Assembly (NCBI GenBank): GCA_947465765.1
Contig: CANIAP010000001.1
Span: 9,349-73,348 of the forward strand
Direction: 5' to 3'
Source of the DNA: a bacterium
GTDB taxonomy: Bacteria > Margulisbacteria > Marinamargulisbacteria > SXXA01
Length of the DNA stretch: 64,000 nt
Part shown: one piece after another, positions 43,083 through 64,000 of the stretch
How positions within the stretch are numbered: the stretch's first letter is position 1
Layout: every line of letters begins with the position of its first letter
Position numbers and translations under genes: made by a program
The notes under the pieces: model-generated
The model's input: only the letters and a program-made list of their open reading frames with translations
Database searches by the model: none
What the model was told of the DNA's origin: nothing

Positions 43083-43436
43083 TTAGGGTTTCTTTGTCTT
43101 CTTCATTTTGTCTAACTGATAGACAAACGCAAGGACTTCGGCGACCAATGTATATAACTCGCCAGGAATTTCAGTATTTAAATCCAATTTGCTGAGCAAT
43201 TCGGTTAGCGTTTCATCCTCATAGAACGGGATTCGATTTTCTTCGGCTAACTCTAATATTTTCTCAGCAACTGAGGCCCTTCCTGTTGCCACAATTTTAG
43301 GGGCTTTGTCTTTCCCTACCTGATATTTAACGGCGATTGCCCGGAGGTCTTTTCGCTCTGGCAACTGGAGCTCATCAAGATGACGCTTGAGCTTTCTGGC
43401 TTTTTTATTAAGTAAGGCCTGAGGTATTTTTTTCAT
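43083..43436 (-). CDS. Stand-alone FlhB C-terminal-like protein (FlhX/YlqH type)
   Basis: AIAVKY....KAPKIVATG...AEKI...A.E..IP..ED..L and EIP.ELY..VAEVL. Confidence 0.88.
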   Translation of the reverse strand: MKKIPQALLNKKARKLKRHLDELQLPERKDLRAIAVKYQVGKDKAPKIVATGRASVAEKILELAEENRIPFYEDETLTELLSKLDLNTEIPGELYTLVAEVLAFVYQLDKMKKTKKP

Positions 43437-44722
43437 ACTTCGGTGTTGATTCTAGATAATGTATCAAGGTTAAGTTTGGGTAAAAGTAACTGCTTAATAT
43501 CGATTTTGTTTTCAGTGGTTTTGAGGCCAACTAATTCGTAACCGTGGGTACTGATCTGGTCTTTAAACTCACCAATCCATTGGGTTACTAGCTGACGACT
43601 GTCGGATCGATCGCTGCTGACAGTCATCCAAAGTTTTTTGTCGAGCACATCAAGAATCACGGCCATCTCGCCCAAATCCTTTGTCTCAAATTTGACGATG
43701 ATGCGGGTTTTTTGGGTATTGTATTCAGTTTTCTTTTTCAGAGGGTCTTTTCTTACGAGAAGTTCCATCACGGCCTGACCTTGCATCCATGGATTGGGAA
43801 ACTGCCAGTATCCAAATCGATCGTTCCCCACCTGTTGGGCCACTTGTTCTGACATAATGGCTTGGCTGGTTAGAGATTCCAAGAAGCCGGAGATGCCACC
43901 CTGGAGGGCGGTGGAGGACTTTAGGAATCGCTCCAATGCGGAGGTCATCCCTTCTTGGGACATTTTTTGACGGAGTCCTCCAATAAATTCATACAAGGCT
44001 TTAAAGTCCTTGATGAGACCCCCGCGACTCAGTTCTGACCAATCCATTCGTTCGTTAGGATCTTTGGAGAGTTTTTTTAATGCGTCATCCAGTTCGGAGA
44101 CTGCGGCACCTAGGCCCGCTAAAAGGCCCGAATCTAGGAACGTGCTGGCAAAGTTCATACTGAGCTGAAACTGGGACATCGCTGATTGGAGTTGCTGCAA
44201 TTGCTGGTTGATTTGGAGTTGATTGTTGAGGAAATGGCCGATGATATCGACACTTCGGGGTGTTTCAGCTAACCCTTTTGACAGGCTGGCTACGGAGGAT
44301 TCGAGTGAATTGGTTGATTTTCTCCCCTTGACCAAGGTTTGAACTGTTTCAAAGTTTGAGGCAGATGCCTCCAAGCCAAATTGAAGAATGGTCGACATAA
44401 TTTGAATATTGTCTGTTGTGGGCGCTTTTTGAATGTGGACGAGTTCATCGACGATGTCCGCTCTAGAAATCGGTCGGGCAATGTTTTCTCTGGGGGAGGG
44501 TGAGGGTGTCCCGTCGGCCTTAGTTACTGGTTTCAGCGCGGATACTTTTCCGGCGCTATCGACGGCAGGCGGGGCATTTACGTTTTTGTTGACGCTTTGA
44601 CTTTCTTCGATCGCGAACGCTTTTTTAATGTTGCCGGATTCATCAACCTTTGGGGATGATTTGACTGAAGGATCGAAAATGCCAGAATGGCGTGGTCCGC
44701 TTGCGTTAATTCCGAAACCCAT
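43433..44722 (-). CDS. FliK-like (hook-length control C-terminal domain) protein
   Basis: Low-complexity N-terminus and C-terminal IVKFETKDLGEMAVILDVLDKKLWMTVSS. ATGA-coupled to the FlhB-like gene, a known pairing. Confidence 0.6.
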   Translation of the reverse strand: MGFGINASGPRHSGIFDPSVKSSPKVDESGNIKKAFAIEESQSVNKNVNAPPAVDSAGKVSALKPVTKADGTPSPSPRENIARPISRADIVDELVHIQKAPTTDNIQIMSTILQFGLEASASNFETVQTLVKGRKSTNSLESSVASLSKGLAETPRSVDIIGHFLNNQLQINQQLQQLQSAMSQFQLSMNFASTFLDSGLLAGLGAAVSELDDALKKLSKDPNERMDWSELSRGGLIKDFKALYEFIGGLRQKMSQEGMTSALERFLKSSTALQGGISGFLESLTSQAIMSEQVAQQVGNDRFGYWQFPNPWMQGQAVMELLVRKDPLKKKTEYNTQKTRIIVKFETKDLGEMAVILDVLDKKLWMTVSSDRSDSRQLVTQWIGEFKDQISTHGYELVGLKTTENKIDIKQLLLPKLNLDTLSRINTEV

Positions 44723-47100: not shown

Positions 47101-47129
47101 TTTTAAATTGGCCCAAGCTCATTTATAAT
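47101..47129 (+). promoter_or_regulatory. Possible sigma70 promoter of the motor operon
   Basis: TATAAT at 47124-47129 with only a weak -35 (ttttaa) 17 nt upstream. SD gggag before ATG 47157. Confidence 0.4.
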
Positions 47130-47156: not shown

Positions 47157-48194
47157 ATGTCTGATTGTCGCTACCGACGTGCGGTATCTACTGTTTTTTT
47201 TATGTTGGGGGCAATGACTTCTGTAGCGATGGCCGCGCCAGCCGCTCCGGTCGTACCGTCTAAGGTAGCTGTGCCATCACCGCTTCGACAACAAGGTACT
47301 CAGGCGACAATTAATGTGGCAGCGCCCCTTACTGATGACGAAATTTTCCAGGTAGAACAGAAGTATAAAGATGCGATGGCCGCAAAAAAGTTTGACGATG
47401 CGCTTCAGTTGTTGAGGAAGCTACCTGAATCATCAATGTCTCGTCCGCGTCGTGCAGAGCGCCAAATGCTAACAACCTTTGAGATCGTTGAGCAGCGGAT
47501 CGCGAGTTCCTCATCGATGTTCGCAAAGGATGATGAATTGGATGATGCGACTCGAAAGACCGTTCAAAAGTTATATAAAGAGGGCCAAAATGCCCTAATA
47601 TCTAATCAAAATGAACTTGGTCGAGATATTCTGATTCATATTCTGTTTTTGCATCGGCAGAATCTGAGGGCAAAAATTCTATTGGAAGAAGCGCTGGATT
47701 TAAAGTCGGGGTCTTATAAGATTGAAAATATGGAAGCGAAATATTGGAATAAATCCTCCATTAATTTCTATGGTGGAAATTACCAAGCCGCAGTGGATGT
47801 TCTTCAGGCTTTGTCCTTTTTTGACAAAGATAATCCTACTGTTTATGAGCGCATGGGCTCTTCTTATTACATGATGGGAGAGAAAGAAAAAGCAATTAGT
47901 TCATGGAATACGGTGCTATTTTTGGATCCTACCGATAAAGATGTTGAAGAGGTTATTAAAAAGACCCAAGAATTGATCGCAGAAGATAAAGAAGACGCAA
48001 AAAAAGAAAAGGCCAAGCCTAAAAATGCTCAGAATGTTAACCTGGCGGAAACGCAGCTGATGGGTAAATTTCCAAAACAGGATCAGGCGTACGAATACGC
48101 GAATACGTTACGTAAGCAAGGCGTGGATGCGGTAGTTACCGAGGAAGATGATGGCAAGTGGGCGGTACGTGTTCCAAAAAAAGGGTCCAAATAG
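47157..48194 (+). CDS. Exported TPR protein with C-terminal SPOR-like domain
   Basis: Signal peptide ending AMA|APA, TPRs (VYERMGSSYYMMGEKEKAISSW), and C-terminal QLMGKFPKQDQAYEYANTLRKQGVDAVV...GKWAVRV. Confidence 0.72.
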   Translation: MSDCRYRRAVSTVFFMLGAMTSVAMAAPAAPVVPSKVAVPSPLRQQGTQATINVAAPLTDDEIFQVEQKYKDAMAAKKFDDALQLLRKLPESSMSRPRRAERQMLTTFEIVEQRIASSSSMFAKDDELDDATRKTVQKLYKEGQNALISNQNELGRDILIHILFLHRQNLRAKILLEEALDLKSGSYKIENMEAKYWNKSSINFYGGNYQAAVDVLQALSFFDKDNPTVYERMGSSYYMMGEKEKAISSWNTVLFLDPTDKDVEEVIKKTQELIAEDKEDAKKEKAKPKNAQNVNLAETQLMGKFPKQDQAYEYANTLRKQGVDAVVTEEDDGKWAVRVPKKGSK

Positions 48195-48212
48195 GAAAGG
48201 GTTGAGTGGGTT

Positions 48213-49688
48213 ATGATGCGCAATTTAGCGGTTAAGCTTTGGGGGATTTTGTTGGTGGTTCTGATACTTGGAATGCCTGCGTTTGCAAGTCCAGATGAAG
48301 TTGCGATTGAAGAACAGATAGCAACGCGGCTGCAACGATCGTTGGATGCGATCTATGGCCCGAACAATTTTGTTGTTCGCGTGACTGTAGCGTTGTCGGC
48401 CCCGAGTTATCAGGTGAGGTATACCGCCCAGTCTAAAGCGGCGGTGGCATCCGATCCCAAAAATCAATCTAAAGTAAATATTATGCCTGGATATCCGGTG
48501 ATTCGGAATCTGGGGCCTGAAAATATGAAGCAGCTGCCGTTTGATTCTGTGACTGCGTATTCCCGTCCTGAAATTCAGTCGACGGTTATTCATTTGCTGG
48601 TCAACAAGTCCTTCCCGAAAGGGCAAGTTGGACGGGCCCAGTCGGTGATTAAAGAACTTTTGGATTTCAAGGATGGTCGGGACAAAATTGAAGTCGTATA
48701 TAAACCGTTTATCGAGCAAGTGGCTCCAATTCAAAAGATTGAAATTGAAAATCAATCCGAAAAAATGTTTTCCCTACAGAATATGTTTTATATGACATTT
48801 GCGGCGATTGCAGTGTTGTTTTTGTTAATTTATATGTTCTTCGCTAGTCGAACTGCCAAGAGCCTAAAAGGGTTGTCTGCGGTGGCGGCATCTGCAGCGG
48901 GGGGCTCGGGCGGTAGTGGGGGGGCCGGACCTTCGGTTAGTGTTAACCCTTCATTTGAATTGCCAAAAGGGGGTTCCGGTGGGGGCGATATCAAGATTTC
49001 AAATGCGCCTCCTGTAAAACGGTATTTCGATTTTGTCTCCGATGACACGGTTGAGAAATTGATCTATTTGTTGAAAAAAGAAAACGTAGGGCCAGATAAT
49101 CTGAGCTTGGTAGTTAGCTTTTTACGTCCTGATTTAGCAGCAAAACTCCTTGGTACTTTTGACGTCAAAACACAGGCTGCGGTCTCAATGGCTATTATTG
49201 ATCAGAAAATGGTGAATCGGGCGATGTTGGATAAGTTGGAGACCCAAATTAAAGGGGCCATCGAATGCCTAACCGGTGGAGAGACCGCCTTTAAGTCGAT
49301 TTTCTCTTTTGTTTCAGGGAGTAATAAACGACAACTTTTGGCCTTGCTTGAAAAGTCATCCCCCGAGGGATATCGTCGGGTTAGAAACAACCTTATACTG
49401 TTCGATGATCTTGCAGTATTGGAAGATGATGAAATTAAAAATCTTCTATCAGAAGTTCGTGCTGAATTGTTTGCGGTTGCGCTGGCCTCGGCAGATCCAA
49501 GCTTGTATGATCGATTTGATCACAATATGACTCGAAATTCTAGAGAGGTCATTTCTCAGTTTCTTGAAATTAAAGGGTCCACGATTGCAGCGGAAGAAGT
49601 GGAGCGAGCGCAACAGACGATATTGGAAGTTGCGATGCGGTTGGAGCGGGATGGACGAATTAATATTTCTGGGAAATTAAAGAAATAA
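48213..49688 (+). CDS. Fusion of signal peptide, FliF C-terminal ring domain, TM and FliG middle/C-terminal domains
   Basis: AFA|SP cleavage site. FliF-like EEQIATRLQRSLDAIYGPNNFVVRVTVAL and GRDKIEVVYKPF, then one TM. FliG-like FDFV...LSLVVSFLRPDLAAKLL, GG, LILFDDL, and NMT...EVERAQQTI...RLERDGRI. Confidence 0.8.
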   Translation: MMRNLAVKLWGILLVVLILGMPAFASPDEVAIEEQIATRLQRSLDAIYGPNNFVVRVTVALSAPSYQVRYTAQSKAAVASDPKNQSKVNIMPGYPVIRNLGPENMKQLPFDSVTAYSRPEIQSTVIHLLVNKSFPKGQVGRAQSVIKELLDFKDGRDKIEVVYKPFIEQVAPIQKIEIENQSEKMFSLQNMFYMTFAAIAVLFLLIYMFFASRTAKSLKGLSAVAASAAGGSGGSGGAGPSVSVNPSFELPKGGSGGGDIKISNAPPVKRYFDFVSDDTVEKLIYLLKKENVGPDNLSLVVSFLRPDLAAKLLGTFDVKTQAAVSMAIIDQKMVNRAMLDKLETQIKGAIECLTGGETAFKSIFSFVSGSNKRQLLALLEKSSPEGYRRVRNNLILFDDLAVLEDDEIKNLLSEVRAELFAVALASADPSLYDRFDHNMTRNSREVISQFLEIKGSTIAAEEVERAQQTILEVAMRLERDGRINISGKLKK

Positions 49689-49712
49689 GCACCGTAATTT
49701 AGGAGATACCTT

Positions 49713-50489
49713 ATGGGAATTGGATTGTACATTGGGTTCGCGGTCGTGTTGGTTGTGCTGGTTGAGTTAATTGGTGCCGATGCGAATGCTAAGCTTTTTT
49801 TGAGTAAAGAAGCCTCGATAGCGGTTTTTGGTGGATTAATTAGTGCCGCACTAATTAATTTCCCAAAGAGCCAGATTGCTAAAATTGGGATGTGGACTAA
49901 GGTCATTTTTAGGTCCCCTAAAAAAGATCTTCTCGAAGAGATTGTGTTGCTTCTTCGGCTATCAAGAAAGTTGAGTCGGGAAGGTCGGCCAGCGCTTGAG
50001 CCAGAGATCGAACAAATACAAGATGGTTTTTTGAAAGCATCGATGACCTTGGTCATGAATCGGGTAGACCCACGTGAAATTAAGATGCTTTTAAAAGAAA
50101 TGATCGAACAAAGCCAAGGGCGACATGAACAGGGCATTCATTTTTTTGAACAGATGGCCAAATATGCACCGGGATTGGCGTTGATCGGGACGTTGTCGGG
50201 GTTGGTTAAATTGTTGGCCAACGTATCTGATCCGAAGAGCATCGGTCCGAACATGGCGTTGGCCTTGGTCTGTACTTTTTATGGGGTGGCAATGTCGAAT
50301 CTTGTTTTTTTGCCGATGTCGGGTCGATTAAAAGTATCCAGTCATGAAGAGTCCGTTCATAAAGAACAGTTGGTTGAAGCGGTGGTTGCGATGGCCTCTG
50401 ATGAATTGCCGATTGTTGTTCAAGAAAAGTTGTATATGTTGTTAACTTCGAAAGATCGGGCACTCGTGGCTAAGCGGCTTGAGGCGTAA
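49713..50489 (+). CDS. motA: Stator subunit MotA/PomA
   Basis: VFGG, SREGRPALE, APGLALIGTLSGLV, IGPNMALALVCTFYG and LVFLP. Confidence 0.9.
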   Translation: MGIGLYIGFAVVLVVLVELIGADANAKLFLSKEASIAVFGGLISAALINFPKSQIAKIGMWTKVIFRSPKKDLLEEIVLLLRLSRKLSREGRPALEPEIEQIQDGFLKASMTLVMNRVDPREIKMLLKEMIEQSQGRHEQGIHFFEQMAKYAPGLALIGTLSGLVKLLANVSDPKSIGPNMALALVCTFYGVAMSNLVFLPMSGRLKVSSHEESVHKEQLVEAVVAMASDELPIVVQEKLYMLLTSKDRALVAKRLEA

Positions 50490-50491
50490 TA

Positions 50492-51622
50492 ATGGGAAAA
50501 AAGTTCCAAAACGAAGTTGAAAACTTTTATGTTTCATTTTCGGATTTGCTGGCTCTCCTATTAATCTTTTTTGTATATCTTTTTTCAATGTCAACGATTG
50601 ATCCTGTTAAGTTTACAGAGTCATCAGAGTCGATTACAGAGGAATTTTCGGAAAAAAAACCAGCCACGTCTGCTGCATTTGGGAAGTCATCTCCTTATAC
50701 ATCGGATCCGTCTAAAGCGGAGCCTCTTCCTGAACAACCTACGCAAGCGGATGTTAAAAAGACAATTGGTCAGACGGTTGATGCGCTAGTTGCCAAGATT
50801 GCGCCCAAAGAAAATAAAGAAAAAGATGCCGCTGGTGCCCCTGTGCAGGCTGAAAAAAAACAGACAGCCGGCGATACCAGTGGAGAGCATAGTTCCAAAC
50901 TCATCGCCGAAAATAAGGAGAAGGATGGTGCTGGGGAGCCGGCCACTGCGGGTAAACCCCAGACGATTGGTCAGACAATAGATAAACTTATTGGCAAGGT
51001 ATTTTCTGAAGATAGTGCGCAAAAAGCCCCAGGCGGCGAGCCTGTAACTGGGAGGCAGCCGAAGGCCACGGACGTGTCCCAGACCCCCACTGCGCCTGAG
51101 GATCGTAGCGCACAGGGCATGTTGGCCGAGAAGCTGGCGTATTATATTAATAAAGAAAAACTGGAGGGGCAAGCGTCCGTTTACGTTGATCCCCGAGGCG
51201 TGAAGGTTGTGTTGGAATCACCGGTATTGTTTGAGTCCGGTAGTGCGGATTTGTCTCCTGAAGGGAGACGCATCCTGATGAAATTGGGGCCTGTGTTTAA
51301 GGAAGTTACAAATCCTGTGGTCATCGAGGGGCATACAGATAATGTTCCTATTCATAATTCGATTTACGGGACTAATTGGGAGTTGTCGTTTCAACGGACA
51401 TTGTCAGTAATGAAGTTTTTTGTGGGGCAGTTTAAATTTACACCCAATCAACTATCGGGAACTGGATATGGTGAATATCGTCCCTTAGTTCCCAATACAT
51501 CAGACGCGAATAAGGCCAAGAATCGGCGGATTGAAATTAATATTCTTCGTGATTATGAGACTGGTACGGCGTCCCCGAATCAAGTTGCGTTATCGGTGGC
51601 GGCGCCTCCACCATCTGAGTAA
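50492..51622 (+). CDS. motB: Stator subunit MotB with long linker and OmpA-like peptidoglycan-binding domain
   Basis: TM with the conserved Asp (FYVSFSDLLALLLIFFVYLFSMS), then LFESGSA, EGHTDN, NWELS..R and NRRIEI. Confidence 0.9.
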   Translation: MGKKFQNEVENFYVSFSDLLALLLIFFVYLFSMSTIDPVKFTESSESITEEFSEKKPATSAAFGKSSPYTSDPSKAEPLPEQPTQADVKKTIGQTVDALVAKIAPKENKEKDAAGAPVQAEKKQTAGDTSGEHSSKLIAENKEKDGAGEPATAGKPQTIGQTIDKLIGKVFSEDSAQKAPGGEPVTGRQPKATDVSQTPTAPEDRSAQGMLAEKLAYYINKEKLEGQASVYVDPRGVKVVLESPVLFESGSADLSPEGRRILMKLGPVFKEVTNPVVIEGHTDNVPIHNSIYGTNWELSFQRTLSVMKFFVGQFKFTPNQLSGTGYGEYRPLVPNTSDANKAKNRRIEINILRDYETGTASPNQVALSVAAPPPSE

Positions 51623-56875: not shown

Positions 56876-57703
56876 ATGAGACTCAATCGTAGGCCTAATA
56901 TTTTTCTGACTCACGGGTTCTCCCTTTGTCTGGGCGTTTTGTCGATTTTGTTTTGTTTTGTTCGGACGATCGAGGCGAGATTTATGCCTGAGATCCAGGA
57001 GATTGAAGATCCCTCCATTCGGATGGTGGTTCAGTCGATGCGAGCCCATCAAACCCAATGGTATGCCATTTTGGTGCAAACCACGAACGTGGACACCCCA
57101 GGGTATATTGAGCCCGGGGGATATAACTACAAGGATAAAGATGGAAATATTGAAATGATGCCATTTTATCGGTTTCGATCAGGTCCGGTTATAGAGACCA
57201 GCCAGCCGTTGGATTTTTATCTTGACGCAAGTAGTCGGGGATTTTTTCAGGTGTTGGTTCCCACGGGTTTGGGCTACACCCGAGATGGTCGATTTGCATT
57301 GACGTTAAATCGCAAGTTAGTCATGGTTGCTGGCGGATTTCCGGTATTGGGTGAGCGGGGAGAGATTTATCTACCCCCTGGAAACGAAATCGCAGTGTCT
57401 AAGACGGGCCAGATTTTTGTGGATGGATCGCCTGTCGACCGTATGAAAGTGATTCTCTTTAAAGATAAGGGCCTCAAGCAATTAGATTCGTTAAACGGCA
57501 GTATTTTTTATTGTTCAGGGGATCCCGACATTGAGCTTGAGGGTGAGTACGGGGTTAGGCAGGGGTTTTTGGAGCAAAATAACGTTTTGAAAGCGCTGGT
57601 GGGCGATGGGGCTATGGCGGCGCGTGCCTATGAAGCAACCTCCAAAGCAGGGAAGTCTATTACCAAGGAAATGAGCTCTGCAATTCAGTTGGGCAGTCCG
57701 TAA
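56876..57703 (+). CDS. flgF: FlgF-like rod protein with signal-peptide-like N-terminus
   Basis: NVDTPGY, GPVIETSQPLD...GFF, YTRDGRF and QGFLEQ..V...RAYEA. Precedes flgG. An alternative start is ATG 56984. Confidence 0.75.
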   Translation: MRLNRRPNIFLTHGFSLCLGVLSILFCFVRTIEARFMPEIQEIEDPSIRMVVQSMRAHQTQWYAILVQTTNVDTPGYIEPGGYNYKDKDGNIEMMPFYRFRSGPVIETSQPLDFYLDASSRGFFQVLVPTGLGYTRDGRFALTLNRKLVMVAGGFPVLGERGEIYLPPGNEIAVSKTGQIFVDGSPVDRMKVILFKDKGLKQLDSLNGSIFYCSGDPDIELEGEYGVRQGFLEQNNVLKALVGDGAMAARAYEATSKAGKSITKEMSSAIQLGSP

Positions 57704-61465: not shown

Positions 61466-62209
61466 TTGGCGAAGGAAGTAAATAAGGTGGATGTAAATCG
61501 TTTGCAGCACCAATCGCTCATGCAAAATCGGCCGTTGCCACCTTTGGATGATAATTTTGTAAGAGAACATCAGTCGATGATTGAGGCGATAGCGTCTGGA
61601 ATTGTGGGTCGAGGATCGTTGCCGACCGGAGTCGATTTTGATGATTTAGTAAGTTGGGGTGGGGAAGGCCTTATTAAGGCGTATCGGAGCTATCGGCCTG
61701 ACAAGGGGACTGTATTTAAAACCTATGCGTACTATCGGATTCGTGGTGAAATGTACGATCGAATTCGGTCGGAATGGCAGTATCGAAATCCAGCTGATTA
61801 TGCAGAGCAACGGCGAAAGATTCAGGAACGTATCGCTGATGTTGTTGAGGAAGCATTAGCCAACAATAGTGATGTGTCTGGATCTGAGATCGAAGAACGA
61901 ATGACTCACTTGATATATGACTCAGCGGTGGTGTGTTTGGTCTCGTTAGAGGGGATTGAAGACGTAGAGGGGGTTTCCGATGAGCAGTTTGATGCCGCAG
62001 AAACCAATCATTCGGAGCTCTGGGATGAAATCGCCAAACTCGATACGGAAGAACGCCAAGTGATAGAAATGTTTTATGTGCATGGGCTTAAACAAAAAGA
62101 AATTTCAGAAAAGATGAATCAGTCCCGGAGTCGTGTGTGTCGAATTCATATGAAAGTTCTTGATAAATTGCGTCGTCGCCTGTCTCTGCAAAAATTGCAG
62201 AGTTCGTAA
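61466..62209 (+). CDS. fliA: FliA/WhiG family (sigma28) sigma factor
   Basis: LP..VDFDDLVSWG..GL, FKTYAYYRIRGEMYD, and region 4 L.QKEISE.M..S.SRVCRIH. Confidence 0.88.
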   Translation: MAKEVNKVDVNRLQHQSLMQNRPLPPLDDNFVREHQSMIEAIASGIVGRGSLPTGVDFDDLVSWGGEGLIKAYRSYRPDKGTVFKTYAYYRIRGEMYDRIRSEWQYRNPADYAEQRRKIQERIADVVEEALANNSDVSGSEIEERMTHLIYDSAVVCLVSLEGIEDVEGVSDEQFDAAETNHSELWDEIAKLDTEERQVIEMFYVHGLKQKEISEKMNQSRSRVCRIHMKVLDKLRRRLSLQKLQSS

Positions 62210-62219
62210 GGAGTATCGT

Positions 62220-62615
62220 TTGAAACGGATTAGTGGTGGTCTGGTGCTAGTTGCCCTTATTCTTTTATCGAGCCAAGCGGTTGCCGATGTTCCTAAGTCC
62301 ATTGATCGGATGTTTTACAGTGAGCCTTACTATAGTGTCGAAGCGGCTATTTTTGAGCGATCTCAACGTCATGCTATTTATGCGTATATTATCTCGAACA
62401 TGACAACGCCAGGGTTTGACCCCATGAAATATCTACCGGCAGATGATCAAGCGGATCTAAACGCGATTGTTCCCGACAAAAAATTTATCCGTGAGGTCTT
62501 GGTCGAATTCTTGATGACTCGGATGTCTGATAATAATAGAAAAGATACGGCCCTAATGACGATTTGGAAAAATAAAAAGGATAGTCTTCAGCGTATCGTT
62601 ACGCTCGGGAAATAA
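62220..62615 (+). CDS. flgB: Divergent FlgB-like proximal rod protein with signal peptide
   Basis: SD aaggag plus TTG 62220. RHAIYAYIISNMTTPGF resembles FlgB RQ..IA.NIAN.DTPGY, and MTRMSDNN....ALMTIWKNK..SLQRIV resembles the FlgB C-terminal helix. Directly before flgC. Confidence 0.65.
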   Translation: MKRISGGLVLVALILLSSQAVADVPKSIDRMFYSEPYYSVEAAIFERSQRHAIYAYIISNMTTPGFDPMKYLPADDQADLNAIVPDKKFIREVLVEFLMTRMSDNNRKDTALMTIWKNKKDSLQRIVTLGK

Positions 62616-62617
62616 CG

Positions 62618-63067
62618 ATGAAATATTACGTGTCTTTTTTGATTGTGGTGGCGTCCGTATCGAGTGCGTTAATGGCGCAGGGGTTGGATTCAGCATTGCG
62701 GTATAGTGCGTCCGGGCTCATGGTTCAGAGAATGAGGTTGTCGATTACTGCTCAAAATATCGCGAATATTTCAACATTTAAAGACGAAGCCACGGGGTTG
62801 CCGTATCAGAAACAATTTGCGATAGTTGAAGCTACTGCGGATGGAGTTCGTATTAAATCGGTTAAAAAAAGTAATGAACCCTTTAATCGCTATTTTGATC
62901 CCGCGGTGCCTCAATCGGATGAAAACGGCTACTTTTATTATCCTAATGTTAATTTGCCAGACGAAATGACTAATTTGACATATACGGAGGCAATGTACGA
63001 AGCTAACGTTTCTGCATTTAAGACGGGTAAAGCGTTGTATCAAGCGGCAATAGACGCATTGAAGTGA
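62618..63067 (+). CDS. flgC: Proximal rod protein FlgC with signal-peptide-like N-terminus
   Basis: SASGLMVQRMRL..TAQNIANIST, PY, DP..P..DENGY..YPNVN...EM and YEANV. Confidence 0.9.
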   Translation: MKYYVSFLIVVASVSSALMAQGLDSALRYSASGLMVQRMRLSITAQNIANISTFKDEATGLPYQKQFAIVEATADGVRIKSVKKSNEPFNRYFDPAVPQSDENGYFYYPNVNLPDEMTNLTYTEAMYEANVSAFKTGKALYQAAIDALK

Positions 63068-63804: not shown

Positions 63805-64000
63805 ATGGCGGAAGTAGAAGAATACGAAGACGGAGTAGACGGTGATTCAGTTCCGTCTCTTACCCGTCGGTCAGGCATTTTTTCCCGTAGCCGTTTAGTG
63901 GGGATTGCGGGTGCTACAGCGGTTGCATTGGGTTCAGGTGCGGTTTACATGATGTGGACGCCATCGAGTCCTAAAATTGTTGATCCCGCAGTGTTGGCGG
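63805..64000 (+). CDS. Membrane protein, 3'-truncated by window edge; possibly FliF
   Basis: Open frame MAEVEEYEDG...RLVGIAGATAVALGSGAVYMMW with one TM. The FliF guess rests only on the usual fliE-fliF order. Confidence 0.45.
   Translation, partial: MAEVEEYEDGVDGDSVPSLTRRSGIFSRSRLVGIAGATAVALGSGAVYMMWTPSSPKIVDPAVLA

Follow-up and report, generated by a model that had tools for sequence, protein, structure and literature searches.

Can the rotor and stator of the bacterial flagellar motor be inherited, and perhaps work, apart from the export apparatus around which a flagellum is built? The question is raised by a four-gene operon in a 64,000-nucleotide stretch of a Margulisbacteria genome (lineage Marinamargulisbacteria, SXXA01; assembly GCA_947465765.1, contig CANIAP010000001.1, positions 9,349 to 73,348 of the forward strand), hereafter the window. 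The operon encodes an exported tetratricopeptide-repeat (TPR) protein, a natural fusion of part of FliF to part of FliG, MotA, and MotB (Table 1), which a preliminary description had proposed to be a minimal motor. Genomes, contigs, loci, and families are given below by our own handles (G, C, L, and f numbers); G000 is the genome of the window (75% complete) and G040 is its congener (97% complete).

A fused rotor-like protein in a conserved operon

The fusion had been read as a signal peptide, a periplasmic domain resembling the third ring-building motif (RBM3) of FliF, one transmembrane (TM) helix, a Gly-rich linker, and the middle and C-terminal domains of FliG, and all of these parts were recovered. 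Pfam matched FliG_M at residues 282-349 (E 2e-6) and FliG_C at residues 379-485 (E 3e-19), while the hydrophobic stretches comprise a signal-like one at about residues 1-32, with a candidate cleavage site after AFA read by eye, and a single TM helix at 186-216. The periplasmic part of the window protein has no Pfam match of its own (no YscJ_FliF). Its AlphaFold model adopts an alpha-beta-(insert)-beta-alpha-beta fold, which Foldseek matched to the RBM3/collar rings of Salmonella FliF (6sd3, E 7.7e-6; 8zdt; 6sd1); HHalign of the fusion family against residues 372-471 of E. coli FliF gave 90.7%, and two homologues score above the YscJ_FliF_C cut-off (L047, E 9.5e-7; P0070, E 5e-9). These four tests agree that the periplasmic part is an RBM3 with a short collar, and the RBM fold on which the earlier proposal depended is thus secure. 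RBM1, RBM2, and FliG_N were not detected in Pfam scans and there is one TM helix, so that the absence of FliF TM1, RBM1/2, and FliG-N also stands; the protein is rotor-like without housing for an export gate, and would presumably act as a ring. Within its FliG part, the EHPQ site and R160 are lost and the linker before GG is shortened; flagellar FliGs of relatives keep EHPQ (as EQPQ) and R160 in four of four cases. Because the FliG middle domain binds FliM (PMC11087270), these residue losses suggest that the fusion probably does not join the switch.

The fusion is not an assembly artefact. Eighteen other homologues share 34-93% identity with it, 17 of them covering at least 94% of the protein, and the frame is intact in dozens of genomes (G081, with E 1e-3 and internal stops, was not counted as a fusion). 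Comparison with G040 gave dN of 0.025-0.117 and dS of 0.77-1.01 (dN/dS about 0.03-0.13), including dN 0.025 and dS 0.77 for the TPR gene and dN 0.034 and dS 0.90 for the fusion gene, which is under strong purifying selection. A profile search returned 768 cluster representatives at E<=1e-30; for the majority of the top 150, the match spans almost the full profile. Among 20 representatives looked up, three are labelled Elusimicrobia/Endomicrobiales and the other 17 gave no taxon; Atlas clusters point to Elusimicrobiota, Cloacimonadota, Bdellovibrionota, and Bacteroidota, and span four further phyla or more. By these sequence comparisons the fusion belongs to a family crossing phyla and appears to group with like-built fusions of other phyla; no relative was found on viral contigs. 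In a 54-row tree, 38 fusion-type FliGs split from flagellar FliGs and from those of a second module described below (support 99/93), with R281 kept in none of the 38 and the linker before GG short in all of them. By the tests run, the fusion falls outside the flagellar motor family and probably outside the type IX family.

Several variants of the fusion were seen. Six metagenome loci (L074-L079; the frameshifted fragments L080 and L081 were excluded) carry fusions that end in a TPR, and the next gene encodes an 800-1270-aa protein that matches no known family. Upstream of some lie an ExeA-like ATPase and chemotaxis genes, and L074 holds two fusions in tandem. A soluble FliG_M/C copy follows the fusion in families f31-f34 (L044:9745-10419, L045:8878-9705, L046:10169-10927). 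The 455-aa FliG of G006 has all three domains (N, M, and C), preceded by a hydrophobic extension at its N terminus (L051:8292-9656); this genome has five FliMN_C matches and no MotB_plug match.

All four open reading frames were confirmed, on one strand and separated by 18, 24, and 2 bases, and the tight linkage proposed earlier extends to relatives: in 29 of 30 loci the gene immediately before the fusion encodes the TPR protein, and in 19 of 30 the gene immediately after it is motA, the window's own locus counted in both. Some contigs were fetched twice, so these counts overstate the independence of the loci. Contigs from four RNA-library runs (at most three samples, two studies) cover all four genes, mostly at >=99% identity, and one crosses the TPR-fusion junction; depth is low with gaps, and DNA in the libraries is possible. 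A promoter-like site precedes the first gene, although its position alone is suggestive because six such sites were found against 7.7 expected from shuffles, which is not above chance. Upstream of the operon by 2.4 kb, on the minus strand and away from the other export genes, lie FliK-like and FlhB-cytoplasmic-domain genes (43083-44722).

The first gene had been described as encoding an exported TPR protein with a SPOR-like domain that positions the motor on the wall. The TPR repeats (Pfam TPR_2, E 4e-7; model pLDDT 82.6) and signal-like N-terminus hold, and the SPOR part is partial: the modelled C-terminal part is beta-alpha-beta-beta only, without what we take to be the second helix and last strand of the full SPOR fold. 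The SPOR (PF05036) score is 19.4 bits against a cut-off of 21 (E 0.0013), one of 24 family members has a SPOR match at E<=0.05, and Foldseek gave helical-repeat proteins with no SPOR among the top ranks listed (to rank 50). A full SPOR domain is therefore not supported; nor, with only part of the domain present, is the proposal that SPOR positions the motor on the wall. The SPOR-like part is conserved within the TPR family alignment. An SLH-TPR gene occurs in G028, and SLH and TPR are fused to the rotor protein in paralogues of G069.

Table 1. Features of the operon and its surroundings, in window coordinates.
Feature	Position	Strand	Basis or remark
Promoter-like site, 10/12 match	47102..47129	+	5' of the first gene (TPR)
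Exported TPR protein, 345 aa	47157..48194	+	Signal-like N-terminus, TPR array, long helix, small C-terminal beta-alpha-beta-beta domain
Partial SPOR-like domain, residues 299-340 of TPR protein	48051..48176	+	Sub-cut-off SPOR match
FliF(RBM3)-TM-FliG(M,C) fusion, 491 aa	48213..49688	+	Pfam, model, Foldseek, HHalign, homologues
Periplasmic RBM3 with short beta-collar insertion; invariant PG motif (P92, G93)	48291..48707	+	Model, Foldseek, HHalign, alignment
Single TM helix and disordered Gly-rich linker, in place of FliF C-tail/FliG_N joint	48774..49007	+	Model, hydrophobicity
FliG middle and C domains of fusion	49056..49667	+	Pfam, alignment
MotA, flagellar-stator type	49713..50489	+	PDB and NCBIfam matches, tree
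MotB: TM aspartate, plug, long low-complexity linker, OmpA-like domain	50492..51622	+	Pfam, structure matches
Start of export-system FliF, 515 aa, RBM1-2 and collarless RBM3	63805..64000	+	Context; runs past window end

A torque domain inherited apart from the export system

G000 also encodes a flagellum-derived export system. Its FlhA, FlhB, FliP, FliR, FliN, and FliM-like genes lie on C2 and FliH/I on C14; the rod, P-ring, and L-ring genes lie within the window, as does the start of the second fliF suspected earlier, which is real and encodes a full FliF with RBM1-2 and an RBM3 without collar. The FliG behind it, outside the window, is 230 aa long and consists of N and M parts only, with its EKPQ motif kept. 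G000 has one FliG_C (in the fusion), one MotA and one ExbB-like gene, and one MotB_plug; G040, too, has one FliG_C. The canonical set is thus present as a separate FliF, a FliG without C domain, a FliM-like protein, and FliN, with no other MotAB. The cell accordingly has an export system that lacks a torque domain, alongside a torque domain that lacks export housing.

The same separation is seen across 146 genomes of the phylum, in which FlhA was found in 135, FliMN_C in 135, FliG_C in 64 (including weak partial matches in G076 and G078), MotB_plug in 59, and flagellin in 15. All 59 MotB_plug genomes are among the 64 with FliG_C, and 78 of the 135 FlhA genomes, including the single-contig G085 and G129, lack both. 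FliG_C therefore co-occurs with MotB, not with the export gate, and is inherited separately. Flagellin was not found in G000 or its order (the 15 genomes with Flagellin_N all lie outside it), and FlgK/L were not found in G000, at its 75% completeness, with E. coli queries. At nine export-system loci, a collarless FliF and a short FliG (140-240 aa) occur wherever readable (one FliF is cut by a contig end and one FliG by a locus end), whether or not the fusion is present. Thirteen genomes (G057-G069) carry flagellin, two or three FlhA matches, and a normal FliG, plus fusion paralogues.

The export system itself recurs across the phylum (L122-L133). Its FliF is collarless, its FliG is truncated, and flagellin is mostly absent; in G057-G069 it stands beside a true flagellum. 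Among its rod proteins in the window, the FlgF-like (56876-57703), FlgB-like (62160-62615), and FlgC (62618-63067) proteins begin with N-terminal hydrophobic signal-like stretches, and FlgG (57794) has none; the stretch of FlgC is also present in G040, G005, G045, G069, and G058, and not in the four f38-f50 loci read. A second FliF/FliG-derived module (L136, corresponding to G000:C12:5470-13762; L082-L095, L158, L160, L161) consists of an N-anchored RBM3-only FliF, a FliG encoded on its own or as part of a fusion of 669-825 aa, a FliM-like protein of short length, motAB, and a pair of barrel-like TPR proteins. A chaperone-usher operon sits inside the module in G033, and the copy in G000 is reduced, its FliG consisting of FliG_N alone. 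Margulisbacteria show the split with unusual clarity because the motorless export system, the motor, and the second module are variously combined, joined in some families by a true flagellum.

The stator and the possible load

Both stator proteins of the window are of flagellar type, with the plug, TM Asp, OmpA-like domain, and large cytoplasmic domain of flagellar-type (FIT) stators. The best PDB matches of MotA are 8ucs/6ysf, to which MotB is closest as well; NCBIfam ranks MotP first for MotA, and MotP/MotS for the stator, below equivalog cut-offs, and the driving ion may be H+ or Na+. The charged rotor-stator pairs (FliG R281/D288/D289; MotA R90/E98; numbering after PMC12505986) are altered: positions 281/288/289/297 of the fusion are N/Q/F/A, and in MotA the R90 equivalent is S with E98 kept. 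R90 and E/D98 are kept in six of six flagellar MotAs of relatives. In all 15 class-typical fusion MotAs, R90 is Q and the accompanying FliG has Q plus an aromatic residue at 288/289; where 288/289 of the fusion are acidic, the neighbouring MotA retains R90 (L052, L076, L078). Charge losses on the FliG and MotA sides track each other in most clades.

That the fusion has a linked stator, as first proposed, is supported; that this stator is its own needs qualifying in that this MotA comes from a different clade than the class norm and the classic charges are altered. The window MotA (S90, E98) falls in a clade of second-module stators and lone motAB pairs (support 100/99), whereas most of the class has a MotA of another clade next to the fusion. 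On this grouping, the usual stator appears to have been replaced in G000, G040, G043, and G032. In G036 and G038, a lone motAB pair is the only MotB match, alongside the only FliG_C. The low-complexity linker of MotB varies in length, the protein having 376 aa here, 606 aa in G040 (L113:10386-12203), and about 220-250 aa in most relatives.

A candidate load is suggested by paralogous loci. Among 24 fusion loci outside the class orthologue set, 11 have a PorV-like barrel, 12 have a type-IX-like C-terminal-domain (CTD) protein or an exported protein of >2000 aa, and 17 have either. CTD protein, barrel-TPR, fusion, and motAB stand in one run in G094 and G096, and a 2500-2950-aa protein follows the fusion, the soluble FliG_M/C and, in two, motAB in G058, G059, G065, G066, G068, and G069. 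Two of the six readable metagenome loci have a barrel-TPR upstream of the fusion, and two have chemotaxis genes. PorV_fam matches lie above cut-off at L078 and below it at L048, L096, and L135. G000 holds PorV-family barrels and CTD cargo outside this operon; on C4, a 4452-aa exported protein accompanies a barrel and a CTD protein, and nothing ties it directly to the motor. A 1786-aa exported protein with an outer-membrane-type C-terminus (G000:C8:31009-36366; L134:3010-8367) has homologues in 141 of the 146 genomes; in six f32/f33 genomes, its gene and the fusion operon are 12-18 kb apart. GldM and GldN were found in none of five genomes tested, the control genomes also scoring below cut-off. 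That a motor is required for type-IX-like export as a general rule was considered and rejected, as barrels and SprA-like proteins occur without it.

Weighing the readings against known systems

If the steps that follow hold, the module would work like the flagellar rotor-stator. Sec would export the fusion, whose RBM3/collar domains would assemble as an S-ring-like ring at the periplasmic side of the inner membrane, and the single TM helix would carry FliG_M/C to form a cytoplasmic gear ring. As that ring is without FliM/FliN, the motor would probably be one-directional, and the shortened FliG linker may stiffen it. Wall-anchored MotA5B2 would use ion flow to turn MotA against FliG_C across an interface whose charges are unlike the flagellar ones, and the TPR protein would link the ring either to the wall or to the outer membrane. 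If the paralogous operons are a guide, the load would most likely be a PorV-like barrel holding a type-IX-like surface protein, to be moved, turned, or released. We favour this reading, a stand-alone RBM3-FliG ring turned by MotAB and coupled via TPR proteins to the outer envelope or to barrel-held surface proteins, and judge its chances to be evenly balanced; that the module is a stand-alone motor of some kind, acting on envelope cargo or on the wall, we consider rather probable.

A number of observations weigh against the favoured reading. Ring assembly, stator contact, rotation, and load are all steps that we infer. The fusion has lost the torque-helix charges, the window MotA keeps E98 though its FliG partner residue is gone, and the FliG part of a laboratory Vibrio FliF-FliG fusion was floppy without FliM/N (PMC10941966). 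SLH domains on some rotors would tether them to the wall, and motA adjoins the fusion at fewer than two-thirds of the loci. The 146 genomes are related and many or most are incomplete, although the separation pattern persists in near-complete ones; support for the fusion-type split falls to 78/96 in a 20-row set, and an AU test on these rows does not reject a single Margulisbacteria origin of all their FliGs (p 0.07). As to the load, a barrel or CTD gene occurs at none of 23 fusion loci within the class. All 146 genomes have PorV-like barrels, and 141 of them also encode an SprA-like giant protein, so this toolkit needs no motor. The name of the latter comes from the nearest Atlas cluster of the 1786-aa protein (SprA-named at 0.87, a lead only), and Pfam SprA_N matched none of the 146 genomes, nor any control. 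A bolder form of the reading, in which a one-gene rotor ring turned by MotAB drives giant surface fibres that leave by type-IX-like export and sit in PorV-like barrels, flagellar parts replacing GldLM, is doubtful.

The absence of barrels at the class loci would be expected if the motor acted on the cell wall instead, the partial SPOR domain (SLH in paralogues) tying the ring to peptidoglycan while the force of the stator puts the wall under tension or remodels it, at the septum for instance. A wall-binding-like domain does recur near or in the rotor, as the partial SPOR here, the SLH-TPR of G028, and the fused SLH-TPR of G069; nevertheless, the SPOR match is weak and covers only part of the domain, the operons examined showed no wall enzyme, and barrels or surface proteins stand beside 17 of the 24 other loci, which leaves this version unlikely. 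The preliminary description had also offered the operon as the rotor for the Sec-exported rod. Here, FliG would be split in a flagellin-less basal body, N/M working with FliM/N at the export gate and the fusion supplying torque from a mixed MS ring or an outer ring that turns the rod. The fusion provides the only FliG_C, and the operon the only MotAB, in the genome; the export FliG lacks FliG_C and the export FliF the collar that the fusion has; rod, P-ring, and L-ring genes are kept; the MS ring has room for RBM3-only subunits, with 23 RBM2 against 34 RBM3 (PMC10941966); and in G099, the operon lies just upstream of a fliK-flgE-fliM-flhA cluster. Yet the site in G099 is occupied by another gene in G085, 78 FlhA genomes manage without FliG_C and MotB, the FliM-binding site is gone, a normal motor, the export system, and several fusions coexist in flagellated relatives, and similar fusions are labelled Elusimicrobiota, most of which are without flagellar structural genes (Uzun et al., bioRxiv 10.1101/2022.07.08.499144). 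The fusion is thus probably not the rotor of the rod operon, the basal-body version being distinctly unlikely, and the other option of that description, a separate non-flagellar machine, accords better with the distribution of FliG_C and MotB apart from FlhA, the lost motif, and the flagellated relatives.

Rotation might also be absent altogether, FliG_M/C serving as a scaffold that docks and gates MotAB as a load sensor, an ion channel, or a Ton/Tol-like means of energy transfer. The class as a whole has lost the torque-helix charges and MotA R90, stators seem able to replace one another between clades, and wall tethers on a rotor are hard to reconcile with free rotation. The invariance of the ring-building domain and collar motif (P92, G93), the flagellar-type plug, OmpA-like domain, and large cytoplasmic domain of the stator, and the paired charge losses speak against this, and we consider the scaffold very unlikely. 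Finally, the operon might be what is left, in decay, of a flagellum since lost, or else a chimera of the assembly, which would fit the lack of flagellin in G000 and its order; this is already contradicted by the purifying selection, the intact frames, and the matching contigs in RNA libraries, and is hardly credible.

A natural, widespread three-gene rotor-stator inherited apart from the export apparatus bears on the origin or re-use of the flagellar motor. One membrane protein plus MotAB can be expressed and imaged, which makes the question testable and offers a minimal rotary motor for reconstitution. A fibre-driving motor of the bolder kind, if real, would give several poorly known phyla an organelle for motility or adhesion, or a means of energising secretion, and would be a living example of a rotor-stator unit working without export gate, rod, or switch.

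FliG and flagellar-type MotAB are treated as flagellum-specific (PMC12505986). In the main text of PMC13277936, the terms 'fusion', 'Margulis', and 'Elusimicrob' do not appear. No description of a natural RBM3-FliG fusion was found in the literature searched, which did not cover supplements and left subscription papers mostly outside. A natural FliF-FliG fusion has reportedly been remarked on in Chlorobium. Non-flagellated Elusimicrobiota also have a stator and FliG (motAB and fliG) without flagellar structural genes; their role was called unclear, and the passages available to us describe neither fusion, RBM3, operon, nor partners (Uzun et al., bioRxiv 10.1101/2022.07.08.499144). What the window contributes is the separation from the export system inside one phylum, the matched charge changes of fusion and MotA, and the apparent exchange of stator.

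The flagellar motor core (FliF MS ring, FliG/FliM/FliN C ring, and MotA5B2/PomA5B2) shares with the operon the RBM3/collar fold, FliG M and C, and flagellar-type MotA/MotB. The fusion differs from it in having one TM helix and a signal peptide, in lacking RBM1/2, FliG_N, and the FliM-binding motif, and in its short linker and altered torque charges; moreover, its operon holds no export, rod, or filament genes and is distributed without link to FlhA. The Myxococcus Agl-Glt system resembles the favoured reading as an ion motor coupled via TPR proteins to outer-membrane barrels and adhesins, and is not known to use a FliF/FliG ring. Its AglRS also differ in belonging to a non-flagellar (GIT) stator clade (PMC12505986). 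Laboratory FliF-FliG fusions in Salmonella and Vibrio show that both proteins in one chain can form rings, but these keep both TM helices, RBM1/2, and FliG_N and act inside a flagellum (PMC10941966), whereas the fusion here is natural, about half the size, and widespread. The type IX/gliding system GldLM-SprB likewise ties an ion motor to PorV-type barrels and large CTD surface proteins (PMC8986121), as the paralogous loci here may do; unlike GldLM, however, the motor here is MotAB on FliG.

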